Below, piece after piece: positions 26,529-64,000 of a stretch of 64,000 bases of DNA (position 1 is its first letter; each line of letters starts with the position of its first letter). A program made the position numbers and the translations under genes. Under the pieces are notes generated by a model. The model did no database searches. It worked only from the letters and a program-made list of their open reading frames with translations, and had not been told where the DNA came from. Origin of the DNA: Escherichia phage JP4. The DNA lies in the sequence record PQ330092. The stretch is one strand, 5' to 3'.

Positions 26529-27161
26529 TTAAACACAAGTAGACAGGGGAAGCTCCTAGTGAACAACCTTTATGTACAGGCGAATTGTTAAAATTCAGCC
26601 TGGACAAATGCGATCACTAGGATTCTCCCCAGGCTAAACCCAGTAATCATAGGTAGTCATAAGTAATCATATATAAACATTTATATGAGCACCGTAGAAT
26701 CACAGAATGATTATATATGATTCAGTACTGATTAGTATAGACAAGAATGCTCAAGAATGCACGGGAAGGATTCAGTACTGATATGCCACTAAGTAGGCAG
26801 AGGAAGTCTGCCGTACTTTGTAGTTTCCAAGCTCCTTTTCCATTTTGCAAATTACATCAAATGTAATCAAAAGTAATCACGCAATGATTAGTACTGAATT
26901 ATTACTTTCACCTTAATTACAATTACCCTTTTACCCTTCGGGGTAAAATTCAATTACCCCTTGAGGCTCCAGCAAAAAGTTGGTTAGTACTCCATCCTAA
27001 ATCTCGATCCTAAAAATTTTGGAGTACCTATGAAATAAAAGTTGGATCTTCGAAAGTTGAAATTTACGTTGGGACGTTTATGATTTGTGGGATATAATGA
27101 TGTTTGTAGACGGGTAGTTCTCAAGAATATCAGTACTGAATGGTGAAAGAAAGTTATTGAC

Positions 27162-27190
27162 ATTATGATTCAGTACTGTATAATGTTCTA
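27162..27190 (+). promoter_or_regulatory. sigma70 consensus promoter (TTGACA-N17-TATAAT) with no obvious downstream ORF
   Basis: Consensus hexamers; downstream ~150 nt lacks an RBS-preceded ORF and ends near the CCACCAGCACAAGCTGGTGG hairpin (~27370). Confidence 0.4.
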
Positions 27191-27540
27191 CATAGAGAGA
27201 TGAGTTGCTGCGAACAATTCATTTACTCTACCTCCTGTCGTGAGACAGTACAGAAAAGATAGTTCCTCCTGTGGTGGTACATCTTTTTGAACCTCATATG
27301 AAAATTGTAATAACAGTACTGATATTAACAGAATGGTGTCAGTACTGATTTTAATCTAAAGCATTATGCCACCAGCACAAGCTGGTGGATTCCCTCTAAC
27401 AGTATTCAGTACTACATGATAGTCTTCATCCTCCTAGGGTAACATAGTGAGGGCTATGATGGCAGTACTGAATACTCCCTTTCAAAAGATAGATCTATGG
27501 TATAGTACTGACGGATTTTGGGTGTAGTTACCCTGGATGG

Positions 27541-27710
27541 ATTTTGGACGTAGATATGTCTAGCCCTCCAGAAGTCTGGAAGTAAAGATGGCTATCCATC
27601 TAGACGGCTAAACGGCTAGATTTCTGGATGGCTGGATGGCTAGACGTTTGGACGGCTAAACGGCTAGATGGTTACACGTCTGGAAGTATAGACGGCTAAA
27701 TCAAAATTTT
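27541..27710. repeat. iteron-like cluster of short direct repeats (GACGGCTAAACGGCTAGAT x2, TCTGGAAGTA x2, GGATGG/GGCTAGACG)
   Basis: Direct repeats visible in non-coding DNA near the start of the 20-kb repeat unit. Confidence 0.55.
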
Positions 27711-28311
27711 ATTTTGTTTTTCCAATAGTTCCCCTACCGCGTGGGGATAGTTTCCCCGCAGTATCTGTAGTTAGATTTTTCTGAATCTGGAATCATTATC
27801 TTATAAACTGGGGGCAATGTCAACGACCTGGCCGGATATTTTTAAAAATTTTTTCAGTACTGAATTTTGGGCGTAACTATGCACCCGGTGGGCTTGAGTC
27901 TTTCTCGACTTGATGGAACTATTATACAGTACTGGAAAAATAAAGCAATACCCTGGATGAAAAAAGTTTTAATTAATTTGCTTGCCATCCTGGGCCGGAC
28001 TATGGTACTATATTTCAGTACTGAGAAAGTGCGTTTACCTGCTAGGGTGCGGGAGTGTATCCTTTTTTTATATCTTGAATTTTGGGCGTAATTCCGCACC
28101 CTCTGGGGTTTCCGCTTTCTCGCGTCTATGTAGTAATTATACGCTTTTTCAGGATCAAGTCAATACCTAAAAACAAAATAATTGAAAATAATTTAACGCG
28201 TTTAAACGGCCTGTAAAGCCCTGGAATGATTGGAATGGTGCAAATGTATAGCTTATGTGTATTAATGCGTTAGAATGCGTCTGAGGCCGTTTTATGGGGT
28301 GTAGTAGTGAT

Positions 28312-28410
28312 TTGGTTGATTCAGTACTGAATAATAGTACTCCTATATAGAAAGATAGTTCCCCTGGATTGATTCAGTACTGAATAATAGTACTCCTATA
28401 TAGAAAGAAA
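28312..28410. repeat. tandem duplication of ~38-bp unit GATTCAGTACTGAATAATAGTACTCCTATATAGAAAGA
   Basis: Two near-identical adjacent copies immediately upstream of the first early promoter. Confidence 0.6.
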
Positions 28411-28439
28411 ACTATTTTAAAAGTATTTGTAGAAAGTAC

Positions 28440-28499
28440 TTGCACCGTACTGATAAAAGCGTATAATGTTTTACATCGAGAGCGGGAACACTTCCCGCT
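28440..28499 (+). promoter_or_regulatory. early promoter (TTGCAC-N16-TATAAT) + 5-prime UTR hairpin AGCGGGAACACTTCCCGCT
   Basis: Consensus hexamers preceded by AAAGTACT; perfect inverted repeat starts ~12 nt after -10. Confidence 0.6.
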
Positions 28500-28522
28500 A
28501 CACATTAAGAGAGATTAAAACG

Positions 28523-28885
28523 ATGGCGACTCAAATCAATAAAATCATGCTTAACCTGGTAAACTTCCGCGAAGAGATGAAAGGTCTTCCGGCTGAAACT
28601 GTAAAAATTCACATTGCAGCTTATCGGGAACTTATTGCAATGTTGCCGCTTAAGCGTGAACAATACGCCGCTACTTTGATGCTTGATTCAATGATCCATA
28701 TAATGATCTCAAATGATTTAACGATGGTTTATCAGTACATGGGCGAAAATTTCGCGGTGTGTAGTAAGCCAGTACCAGGGATGGCAACTACTGAGGAATT
28801 GCACGGTTTAAATTTAAAGCAAGATGCATGGGATAATATGCCTCGTTTCCTGGTATGGGCTGACAGTGGCAAAATTTACAAATAA
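28523..28885 (+). CDS. hypothetical early protein (120 aa)
   Basis: ATG after AAGAGAG RBS downstream of promoter+hairpin; longer ORF (28466) starts inside the promoter. Confidence 0.65.
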   Translation: MATQINKIMLNLVNFREEMKGLPAETVKIHIAAYRELIAMLPLKREQYAATLMLDSMIHIMISNDLTMVYQYMGENFAVCSKPVPGMATTEELHGLNLKQDAWDNMPRFLVWADSGKIYK

Positions 28886-28899
28886 GTTTAATAAAGTAC

Positions 28900-28958
28900 T
28901 TGCAAACTAAGTTTAAAAGCGTATAATGTTTTACATCAGGTGGGGAATAGTTCCCCAC
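28900..28958 (+). promoter_or_regulatory. early promoter (TTGCAA-N16-TATAAT) + 5-prime UTR hairpin GTGGGGAATAGTTCCCCAC
   Basis: Same module architecture as other early genes. Confidence 0.6.
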
Positions 28959-28977
28959 TATATAAGAGGATTAAAAA

Positions 28978-62076: not shown

Positions 62077-62129
62077 CAGTACTCAATTGTTTTAGTACTA
62101 TGTACACATACCAACACGGGAGAAACAAA

Positions 62130-62348
62130 ATGAAATTATCTAAAATCGAAAAGAAAACTATTGATGAAGCAGTTAAGCACGGTTATACCTTTCGTAATGA
62201 TTCACATTTTACCAATTTTCAACAAGGGTATCGTACTATTAAAAAACTAATTGACAAAGGTTTATTAGTTGAAGTCAATAACGGTAACGGTATCGAGTAT
62301 CAACCAACACAAGACGCATTTTATTTTAAGAAATATAATATTATCTAA
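62130..62348 (+). CDS. hypothetical early protein (copy 2 of 42016..42234)
   Basis: Identical sequence at +20114. Confidence 0.6.
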   Translation: MKLSKIEKKTIDEAVKHGYTFRNDSHFTNFQQGYRTIKKLIDKGLLVEVNNGNGIEYQPTQDAFYFKKYNII

Positions 62349-62406
62349 TTGACAGTACTCAAATGTTTTAGTACTATATGTACATACCAACACGGGGAAA
62401 AACAAA

Positions 62407-62649
62407 ATGATTACTTTAGAAAAACGTATCAAAGAAACTACATCGCTGGTGGAATTGTTAACAGTACTGAAATGTAAAACTACTCGGTTTAGTACACCGG
62501 ACTTTATTAATATGGTTGATGTTAACGGTCGTTATCGTATTGCAGTAGAACAAGGCACGGCAAAAGTATTCAGTACTAAAAACACTAAGGAAGTGATTCA
62601 CGCGGTTAGTGTAAAAAAAGTAGTTGCCATTGATAGTAAAGTACTGTAA
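62407..62649 (+). CDS. hypothetical early protein (copy 2 of 42293..42535)
   Basis: Identical sequence at +20114. Confidence 0.65.
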   Translation: MITLEKRIKETTSLVELLTVLKCKTTRFSTPDFINMVDVNGRYRIAVEQGTAKVFSTKNTKEVIHAVSVKKVVAIDSKVL

Positions 62650-62680
62650 TATAGTTTCATTAACTCAAGGAGAACATGCA

Positions 62681-63265
62681 ATGCGTAATTATACTAAATT
62701 CATCCGTACACTGTCAGAAATGGAAACCAACAAAGAGATCCTTTCAGCTTGTCGGTTAGCTGGTCTGGAGATCATCGGGGCAGGTTCTTCCCGTATAGTT
62801 TTCGCTTTAAATGATCGGTTAGTGATCAAGGTCGCGAATTGTGATGCGGGTGTAGAACAAAATGAAACAGAATGTAGGGTATGGAATTTTTTAGACTATG
62901 ACCGCCCTCAGTTGAAACAGTTCTTCGCTAAAGTGCATATGCATTTAAGCGATCCTGATAATATGTTTATTGTTATGGATCGGTTGAGTACTGCAAGTAA
63001 AGGCAGTGTAAAGCACGTTAACGCGTGCAATGAATTAAAGTACAATATTAAACGTAATGCCATTGAACGCCAGCACCGCTTTGCTGATGCACTACAACAC
63101 GTTGATGATACATTATCAACACTAACGATAAGAGATATCAGAAAACAGAATATCGGCCAGGATCGCAACGGCCTTATTAAAGTACTTGATTACGGTTTAA
63201 CCCGCAATATCTGGAATCAGTACTATAAAAAGCGTGATGTAAAAGCCGTAACTATAACACGATAA
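62681..63265 (+). CDS. putative protein kinase-like early protein (copy 2)
   Basis: Identical to 42567..43151. Confidence 0.5.
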   Translation: MRNYTKFIRTLSEMETNKEILSACRLAGLEIIGAGSSRIVFALNDRLVIKVANCDAGVEQNETECRVWNFLDYDRPQLKQFFAKVHMHLSDPDNMFIVMDRLSTASKGSVKHVNACNELKYNIKRNAIERQHRFADALQHVDDTLSTLTIRDIRKQNIGQDRNGLIKVLDYGLTRNIWNQYYKKRDVKAVTITR

Positions 63266-63280
63266 AAAAAGATTAAAAAA

Positions 63281-63313
63281 GGGATTGACTCCGGTCAGTC
63301 CCTTTGCTATTAT
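63281..63313 (+). promoter_or_regulatory. dual terminator/promoter element (copy 2 of 43167-43199)
   Basis: Identical sequence at +20114. Confidence 0.55.
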
Positions 63314-63487
63314 ATATTCATTGAGAGATAACTCACTGACCCATAGGGTGCGGAAGTGTATCTATTATATAAGTATTCAGTACTGAAAACTATTTGATAA
63401 AAAGTACTTGCATTGTACTTAGAATCAAGTATAATGTTTTATATCGAGAGGGGGAAACGGTTCTCCCTGGCAATAAGGAATAAAATC

Positions 63488-63709
63488 ATGACTACAATGA
63501 CTTGCATTTACGCTTCCAATCTTCTGAATGATGCGGCCTTTAATGTTGATTCAGAATATCAATGTTATCGGGATGAAAATAAAAAAGTTTTTGTAGTTGA
63601 TAATAATGGTTTCCATATTGAATTACAATCCGGCTTCACTGGTGTTGATGGTAAATCAGTATGGGGCGTACAGGATGATAAAGGCACATATCATTTTAAA
63701 CGTAATTAA
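63488..63709 (+). CDS. hypothetical early protein (copy 2 of 43374..43595)
   Basis: Identical sequence at +20114. Confidence 0.65.
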   Translation: MTTMTCIYASNLLNDAAFNVDSEYQCYRDENKKVFVVDNNGFHIELQSGFTGVDGKSVWGVQDDKGTYHFKRN

Positions 63710-63793
63710 GTATTGACAAAGTATATTAGTACTGTATAATAGTTTACATCAAGGGGAGAATAGTTCTCCCCGATACTAAAAGGAAACAAAATT

Positions 63794-64000
63794 ATGTCCA
63801 GCTACTCCGCTACTATGATCATTAAAGATATGAACGGTAATCCTACTTCTGCTGGTGGATCATTTGGAAACATTAATTTAGATGGTCGGTTATCCATGCA
63901 ATCAGCCATCGATGCAGCGAAAGAAGTTTTTAAGAATGAATGTACTGTTAGTAAGCTGGATTATATGGGATTCGCTATCGAAAAAACTAATCGTTTTGTG
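63794..64000 (+). CDS. hypothetical early protein, 3-prime truncated by window end (copy 2 of 43680..43952)
   Basis: Identical start region at +20114; window ends inside the ORF. Confidence 0.6.
   Translation, partial: MSSYSATMIIKDMNGNPTSAGGSFGNINLDGRLSMQSAIDAAKEVFKNECTVSKLDYMGFAIEKTNRFV

Follow-up and report, generated by a model that had tools for sequence, protein, structure and literature searches.

The analysed window, a 64,000-nt stretch of sequence record PQ330092 (Escherichia phage JP4), contains a long direct repeat. When the window was compared with itself, positions 26792–43886 and 46906–64000 were identical on the same strand over 17,095 bp with 0 mismatches, which far exceeds chance, and this was the only long run of identity at the offset of 20,114. 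The exact direct repeat with a period of 20,114 bp that had been given in a preliminary description of this DNA was borne out, including a second copy that leaves the window. The left edge of the repeat was sharp at 26792 (base 26791 is A and its counterpart 46905 is T), and the run of identity stopped at 64000 solely through the end of the window. Copy 1 is whole (26792–46905) and copy 2 is visible for its first 17,095 bp; the value of 20,114 bp was measured as a period and is extrapolated to the length of the complete repeat, with 43887–46905 (3,019 bp) having no visible partner. As a full length it is plausible because the exact terminal repeats of related phages measure 20,107–21,525 bp. 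The features of the locus are as follows, with each copy named after the genome end to which it would belong.

26770–26791, + strand: TTCAGTACTGA palindrome element, then ...CCACTA right before the left cut
26792–46905, + strand: probable right-end copy, the complete 20,114-bp direct terminal repeat; exact repeat, contiguous with the upstream unique DNA
26792–26817 and again 46906–46931, + strand: hairpin-capable inverted repeat at the left terminus, AGTA-GGCAGA-GGAAG-TCTGCC-GTACT
26792–28465, + strand: leader of ~1.7 kb with many TCAGTACTGA palindromes and no confident gene
27157–27184: perfect sigma-70 consensus promoter in the leader
About 27537–27704: array with 8-nt periodicity within the leader, with units like TAGACGGC and TGGATGGC
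28466–46753, + strand: ~49 (about 50) small same-strand genes with a median of ~82 aa
37865–38119, + strand: DksA/TraR zinc-finger protein
38187–38540, + strand: GNAT acetyltransferase
46826–46905, + strand: right-end element of ~80 nt that is conserved and closes the repeat, with ...CTAAAGGGCGGGTAACCT at the cut
46905–46906, no strand: right and left genome ends placed against each other, probably a non-biological join; no spanning sequence found
46906–64000, + strand: first 17,095 bp of the probable left-end copy, with which the linear genome would begin; exact repeat, and the records of four relatives start here

The 8-nt array of the leader lies at the same offset (about 811–821 nt) in three relatives, and the first annotated CDS of CRJP21 and vB_Ec-M-J begins at about 1.74 kb. 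The gene block has many near-consensus sigma-70 promoters, the −10 boxes of which are abutted by an AGTACTG element. Sigma-70 sites with a score of at least 11/12 numbered 25 in the repeat (12 of them perfect) against 0.93 expected, a ~27-fold excess where the maximum in 100 simulations was 4, and the block had rightly been called promoter-dense; 20 of the 25 sites were on the + strand, and the 26.8-kb flank contained three. Searches of Pfam and PHROGs with the ~50 genes of the repeat matched only the DksA/TraR zinc finger, the GNAT acetyltransferase, a domain of ParE type and DUFs, the PHROG matches being without annotated function, and showed no homology to characterised takeover proteins; a function could be assigned to almost none of these genes. 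No structured RNAs or tRNAs were found in the repeat. Strong host-type sigma-70 promoters point inward from the left end and would drive ~50 tiny genes, a layout that would fit transcription by unmodified host RNA polymerase at the immediate-early stage, starting from either end, depending on which one enters first, and we infer an early or host-takeover role for the block.

Judged by its sequence, the source is a 121Q/PBECO4-like jumbo coliphage of the genus Asteriusvirus. The window was 95–98% identical to about 40 Asteriusvirus records and, over the tested segments, 95–100% identical to more than 30, with matching gene order. Position 1 of the linear records of E9.1, CRJP21, vB_Ec-M-J and fEgEco12 is AGTAGGCAGAGGAAGTCTGCC..., the window sequence from 46906 onward. 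The three records checked at the other end (E9.1, CRJP21 and vB_Ec-M-J) terminate in ...GGGCGGGTAACCT, the window sequence up to 46905; the fEgEco12 repeat has this same ending, and the 60 bases compared at the start of G17, a record in the opposite orientation, are the reverse complement of the window sequence ending at 46905. The E9.1 record, beside its own right repeat, is contiguous over window positions 23800–29800. Exact terminal repeats in the relatives measured 20,107 bp (E9.1), 20,152 bp (CRJP21), 20,668 bp, 20,993 bp (fEgEco12) and 21,525 bp (vB_Ec-M-J, with 1–21525 annotated as ‘Direct Terminal Repeats’ in its record). These repeats and that of G17 (~20 kb) have the genus in common with the window, along with the bases at which the repeat begins and ends, its internal gene order and the flanking unique DNA, but differ from the 20,114 bp of the window in length via small indels. 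In the linear records of the relatives (367,851 bp for E9.1 and 366,301 bp for CRJP21), one copy stands at each end, at a distance of ~347 kb from the other, whereas in the window the two are adjacent.

The join at 46905/46906 reads ...GGGTAACCT↓AGTAGGCAGAGG. A 1,200-bp probe centred on this join matched 36 phage records, and all of the alignments broke at 600/601 with none spanning it. Both copies were present in nine of these records and a single copy in 27, an example of the latter being SP27 with the repeat at 132,822–153,750. Neither E. coli genomes nor plasmids matched the junction (1.2-kb probe), and a 36-mer across it was absent both from IMG/VR and from metagenome contigs. In 10 of 10 independent contigs, the right end of the repeat continued into unique DNA (...GGGTAACCT↓TAGCGACTTCG...), where homology to the window ended at 46905.

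The preliminary description had proposed a linear genome with ~20-kb direct terminal repeats placed head-to-tail, captured at a concatemer junction or circularised by the assembler. Its first part is supported: the copies are direct and identical, their edges correspond to the base to the deposited, physical ends of the relatives, and assemblies that are collapsed or replicative have a single copy between unique arms. The second part was rejected, given that a concatemer junction and a circularised assembly would each carry one copy between unique arms, as the 27 single-copy records and the non-virion assemblies do, whereas the window has two adjacent copies, the first of which is not followed by unique DNA. 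This points to the juxtaposed ends of a two-copy linear record as the source of the tandem. We concluded, with a probability of roughly 90%, that the tandem is the right and then the left terminal repeat of a record that was wrapped end-to-start, a wrap for which the relatives provide the basis. The virion DNA would then be linear and ~367 kb long with a ~20-kb direct repeat at both ends; window positions 1–26791 would be the last unique DNA and 26792–46905 the right terminal repeat, and at 46906 the sequence would jump to base 1 of the genome, with the left terminal repeat running from there to the end of the window. The adjacency would stem from record handling (a circular reading of the record, or wrapping at the time the window was extracted) and not from DNA structure. 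Judging from the relatives and from general knowledge of T7-, T5- and SPO1-type phages, replication intermediates would contain one copy of the block between unique arms. On the same grounds, the packaging cuts would fall on two fixed sites separated by 20 kb, the block would be duplicated, and each virion would have one copy per end, identical by construction. The exact identity of the copies, which had been put forward as an argument against an old duplication, is uninformative because both copies come from one template, either biologically or via the depositor.

The junction would be present in real molecules if blunt virion ends had been ligated, in the cell after injection or during library preparation, into a circle or dimer that the assembler then followed. 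The copies do join exactly end-to-start at the physical termini, as end ligation would yield, and the window sequence itself is compatible with such molecules; however, the junction was found in 0 of 36 related records, 0 of 10 independent contigs and no IMG/VR or metagenome contig. Two adjacent 20-kb direct copies are also expected to be resolved quickly by recombination, and short reads do not allow an assembler to arrange two identical copies of this length in tandem, which makes this origin improbable. The absence of the junction from all collections searched also weighs against a very recent, genuine internal tandem duplication of the 20-kb segment in this isolate. Although the exact identity of the copies is compatible with such an event, both ends of the repeated unit are genome termini and fall to the base on those conserved in the relatives, for which a random event would have no reason; it is seen in no relative and would lengthen a genome with fixed packaging ends by 20 kb, and we consider it extremely unlikely.

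Terminal repeats of ~20 kb in Asteriusvirus and its relatives have already been published, and the repeat found here is real but ordinary. In fEgEco12, the 20,993-bp repeat was determined by PhageTerm and confirmed by restriction digests (2026; PMC13070987), and in G17 a terminal redundancy of ~20 kb was derived from coverage (2019; PMC6563267). In related genera, a 22,456-bp repeat was derived for the Pectobacterium phage CBB from 2x read depth and PFGE (2017; PMC5259590) and a 19,736-bp terminal repeat for the Klebsiella phage fENko-Kae01 by PhageTerm (PMC11218385). These mapped repeats weigh against a pure assembly artefact, in which the isolate would have no terminal repeat and a circularly permuted or otherwise single-copy region would have been duplicated by software. 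While 27 of the 36 related records were deposited as single-copy, so that assemblies by themselves do not reveal the repeat, the same boundaries were found independently in fEgEco12 and G17, and software duplication would not hit those exact boundaries by chance; such an artefact is therefore very unlikely.

The two cuts that would define the repeat were compared across Asteriusvirus, fENko-Kae01 and CBB. At the left cut, for which the cross-genus comparison used annotated repeat coordinates since MAFFT misplaced the cut sites as spacing varies, TTCAGTACT was found 12–17 nt outside the repeat and CTA↓ formed the last three bases outside it in all three. The right boundary aligned with a mean column identity of 72%, and CT↓TAGC was invariant at the cut. 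Read 5'→3' from the outside inward, the left edge is CACTA↓AG on the top strand and the right edge CGCTA↓AG on the bottom strand in Asteriusvirus, with CGCTA↓TA and GGCTA↓AG in fENko-Kae01 and CGCTA↓TA and CGCTA↓AG in CBB; (G/A)CTA↓ is thus placed outside both edges, mirrored, in three genera. The inverted repeat at the left terminus had a DNA fold of −6.9 kcal/mol (z = −3.6), and fENko-Kae01 had an analogous but unrelated left-terminus hairpin (z = −2.7); a terminal hairpin as a conserved end signal was dropped, being absent in CBB and at all right ends. Tentatively, the mirrored motif suggests that both cuts may be made at one short signal in mirror image and that RaK2-like jumbo phages might duplicate the repeat in this way, a possibility that we hold to be rather doubtful. 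The scheme would involve site-specific nicking of opposite strands and then fill-in by strand displacement, as in the Watson/T7-type model but 100-fold larger. No description of it was found in the published accounts consulted, and, if true, it would provide a sequence rule from which the actual genome ends could be predicted for the many relatives that are on record as ‘circular’ assemblies with a single copy.

Among known systems, the repeats of the RaK2-like phages CBB and fENko-Kae01 are similar in length, with ~50 small genes inside, and have the ~80-nt right-end element and (G/A)CTA↓ outside both cuts in common with Asteriusvirus; they belong to other genera, however, their repeat interior is not alignable at the nucleotide level and their left-terminus sequence differs. 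SPO1 has a terminal redundancy of ~13 kb with a host-takeover module, and T5 one of ~10 kb with pre-early genes. Both resemble the present case in a linear genome with fixed ends, a multi-kb exact direct terminal repeat and small genes behind strong promoters for host RNA polymerase, but the Asteriusvirus repeat is longer and has no gene-product homology to theirs detectable with Pfam or PHROGs. In T7-type concatemer processing, one repeat copy is present per junction and is duplicated at packaging. The likeness lies in the single copy between unique arms in non-virion assemblies and in short repeated arrays near the ends, and the staggered-nick and fill-in scheme would predict a motif mirrored between the two cuts; the T7 repeat is 160 bp, however, and that of Asteriusvirus is ~125 times longer. 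A further difference is the terminase, which the CBB paper describes as T4-like (PMC5259590). The Xanthomonas phage XacN1, also of jumbo size but unrelated, has exact direct terminal repeats that are even longer, at 66 kb, and carry tRNA genes (PMC5852040), so that 20 kb is not an exceptional length.

The main value of the finding is in quality control, as a striking ‘exact 20-kb tandem duplication’ is most probably the known Asteriusvirus terminal repeat read across a record seam. Scans that wrap linear records would give the same signal for any phage whose record includes the terminal repeat at both ends, and a filter against it is advisable. With ends that agree to the base across independently sequenced isolates, the true termini of the ~27 single-copy records with arbitrary starts would be predictable from sequence, and the mirrored motif at the cut sites may offer a modest lead on how very long terminal repeats form.

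Self-comparison of the window at an offset of 20,114 gave one long run of identity, in which 26792-43886 equals 46906-64000 over 17,095 bp with 0 mismatches, and the exact repeat noticed in the preliminary description was thus confirmed as written. The right limit of the run is set by the window end and by no other cause, while the left edge is sharp (A at 26791, T at 46905). Copy 1 (26792-46905) is whole and copy 2 is visible over 17,095 bp, so that 20,114 bp is the measured period and the inferred full repeat length. The left terminus of the repeat (26792, likewise 46906) opens with AGTAGGCAG and its right terminus, up to 46905, reads ...GGTAACCT.

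Using 6-kb probes over both repeat edges, we matched about 150-180 phage records, the best of which were 95-98% identical, and every close match was a 121Q/PBECO4-like jumbo coliphage (genus Asteriusvirus). Upstream of the repeat, RCC1-repeat paralogs (Pfam) are arrayed on the minus strand and are followed by a plus-strand array of tiny genes, and the order of RCC1 array, tiny-gene array and repeat was also found at the right end of the relatives E9.1, CRJP21 and vB_Ec-M-J.

Features outside the repeat
2583-3353, plus strand: 256-aa protein with weak AAA/STAND-type P-loop NTPase matches
7382-21652, minus strand: RCC1 block, eleven consecutive ORFs of 269-460 aa, two pairs overlapping
21737-26528, plus strand: tiny paralogous gene array upstream of the repeat, at least 20 ORFs of about 60 aa
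E9.1 locus L004 20205-23756, plus strand: tiny paralogous gene array downstream of the repeat in relatives, at least 16 ORFs of about 70 aa

RCC1/RCC1_2 scored above the Pfam cut-off in all three RCC1-block ORFs scanned (3 of eleven), and the block is annotated 'regulator of chromosome condensation' in relatives. Many of its ORFs are followed by near-identical terminator-like hairpins (GCCAGTAC-loop-GTACTGGC). For the 256-aa protein, most NTPase matches were below Pfam cut-offs, with only PF00004 (AAA) marginally above. Tandem arrays of tiny paralogs border the repeat both upstream and downstream, the downstream one being seen in relatives; members were alike within each array (73 and 152 BLASTP pairs), and no similarity between the upstream and downstream arrays was detected by BLASTP.

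All alignments of the 6-kb probe over the junction 46905/46906 (slashes mark the junction, a repeat edge or the cut site) break at that point, which no record spans. A 1,200-bp probe centred on the junction matched 36 records, 9 with both repeat copies and 27 with one, and every alignment stopped at probe position 600/601; the same probe had no match among complete E. coli genomes or plasmids, and a 36-mer over the junction was absent from IMG/VR and the metagenome contig collection. Position 1 of the four linear records CRJP21, E9.1, fEgEco12 and vB_Ec-M-J has the bases of window 46906 onward, and the final bases of E9.1, CRJP21 and vB_Ec-M-J, where checked, are those of the window up to 46905. 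The fEgEco12 repeat ends in the same way, and G17, recorded in the opposite orientation, starts with the reverse complement of the window sequence ending at 46905 (60 bases compared, matching). At least 19 public contigs carry the final gene of the repeat (46544-46753); their BLAST homology to the window ceases exactly at 46905, and 10 of 10 independent contigs examined read ...GGGCGGGTAACCT/TAGCGACTTCG..., passing from the repeat end into unique DNA.

Exact terminal repeats in Asteriusvirus relatives
E9.1: 20,107 bp
CRJP21: 20,152 bp
G17: 20,668 bp
fEgEco12: 20,993 bp
vB_Ec-M-J: 21,525 bp, annotated 'Direct Terminal Repeats'

The tandem look of the repeat is very probably an artefact of how a linear record was read. 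On this reading a linear genome contributes its right end (unique DNA and the right terminal repeat) to the window, and its left end (the left terminal repeat) comes immediately after; two adjacent copies would appear only if a full-length linear record with both copies were read over its end-to-start seam; this step from a linear two-copy record to the wrapped window is one that we infer. The full-length virion molecule would start with AGTAGGCAG and end with GGGTAACCT, with one repeat at either end. The core of the preliminary description, a long terminal redundancy joined head-to-tail, was right, the two sides of the junction matching the two genome ends of relatives. The routes proposed there, a concatemer junction or a genome circularised by the assembler, need correcting because each would contain one repeat copy between unique arms, which is what the single-copy records and contigs show, and we rejected both as readings of the tandem. 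The exact identity of the copies, from which it had also argued, carries no information, since the virion copies derive from one template and the second copy in records is usually pasted in.

A ~20-kb terminal repeat is an already published property of Asteriusvirus. Terminal redundancies of ~20 kb were indicated by sequence coverage for G17 in 2019 (PMC6563267), and the 20,993-bp repeat of fEgEco12 was found by PhageTerm and confirmed with restriction digests by authors who reported ca. 20-kb repeats in every related jumbo phage whose ends have been mapped (PMC13070987). Similarly long terminal repeats occur in related RaK2-like jumbo phages of other genera, namely Pectobacterium phage CBB (22,456 bp, by 2x depth plus PFGE; PMC5259590) and Klebsiella phage fENko-Kae01 (19,736 bp, by PhageTerm; PMC11218385). 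The repeats of XacN1 are 66 kb (PMC5852040), and 20 kb is therefore not extreme.

The repeat begins with ~1.7 kb of sequence that contains many TCAGTACTGA palindromes and no confident gene. A short-period array lies within it, roughly 750-910 nt in from the left terminus, and E9.1, CRJP21 and vB_Ec-M-J have the array at an equal offset.

About 27537-27704: 8-nt-periodic array of about 20 consecutive units (TAGACGGC, TAAACGGC, TGGATGGC, ...)

This array resembles the short repeat arrays that adjoin the terminal repeat of T7, and could be a protein-binding array for packaging or replication. A hairpin-capable inverted repeat was found at the left terminus (z = -3.6); we dropped it as a conserved feature because its analogue at the left terminus of fENko-Kae01 is unrelated and none was found in CBB or at the right ends. 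At the right end of the repeat, the final ~80 nt are alignable over three genera with 72% mean column identity, and CT/TAGC is invariant at the cut.

Repeat edges read from outside inward (left, top strand; right, bottom strand)
Coliphages: left CACTA/AGTAGG, right CGCTA/AGGTTA
fENko-Kae01: CGCTA/TATCTT and GGCTA/AGGCAT
CBB: CGCTA/TATCCG and CGCTA/AGCGTT

In the three genera, a mirrored (G/A)CTA stands directly outside both repeat edges (window 26791/26792 and 46905; E9.1 L004 20107/20108), where the chance of an exact 4-nt match in register is about 0.005 per lineage, the lineages not being independent. In vB_Ec-M-J each edge has one additional A (CACTAA/ and CGCTAA/), which could be either real co-variation or a sequencing error in a homopolymer. 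The mirrored motif is what would be predicted by a scheme of staggered nicks plus fill-in, in which the left edge is nicked on the top strand and the right edge on the bottom strand, either nick leaving a 3'-OH outside the repeat; that the repeat is generated by this scheme is a lead only and in our estimation rather unlikely.

The 6-bp palindrome AGTACT is the most over-represented hexamer in window 1-46905 (238 copies versus about 16 expected from base composition) and is densest in 21501-46905. It adjoins the -10 box of most putative early promoters in the repeat and also forms the stem of terminator-like hairpins (GCCAGTAC...GTACTGGC). Of its 48 copies in the RCC1 block (minus strand), 41 lie inside genes, where they are strongly biased in codon phase (29 of the 41 in one phase). 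No one explanation spans all of these contexts, and a literature search for AGTACT tied to jumbo-phage promoters found no such paper.

Genes and hairpins of the repeat
28466-46753, plus strand: about 50 non-overlapping ORFs, median 82 aa
39895-39922, 43164-43191 and 45422-45449: three exact copies of a 28-nt perfect hairpin, AAAGGGATTGACTCCGGTCAGTCCCTTT then GCTATTATAT
35875-35902: variant of the 28-nt hairpin

Most of the ORFs have a Shine-Dalgarno-like sequence. Pfam matches were only to a DksA/TraR zinc finger, a GNAT acetyltransferase, a ParE-like domain and some DUFs, and no PHROG family matched by the repeat genes had an annotated function. The 28-nt hairpin overlaps a promoter-like TTGACT-17-TATTAT, placing a terminator-like stem and a promoter on the same bases.

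The earlier remark that the repeat is promoter-dense holds, with 107 promoter-like sites versus 68.1 ± 8.8 in shuffles by a consensus scan. Sites with at least 11/12 consensus matches numbered 25 (12 perfect, 20 on the plus strand) versus 0.93 expected and a maximum of 4 in 100 first-order Markov simulations, and versus 3 in the 26.8-kb flank. The repeat promoters have in common an extended pattern, roughly (AGTACTA) TTGACA N8-9 AGTACTG TATAAT N5-6 ACATCAA, in which AGTACTG is at most 1 base from the -10 box in 14 of 20. It is reasonable to expect that host RNA polymerase transcribes the repeat block early and, by analogy with SPO1 and T5, the block may be a candidate for a host-takeover role.
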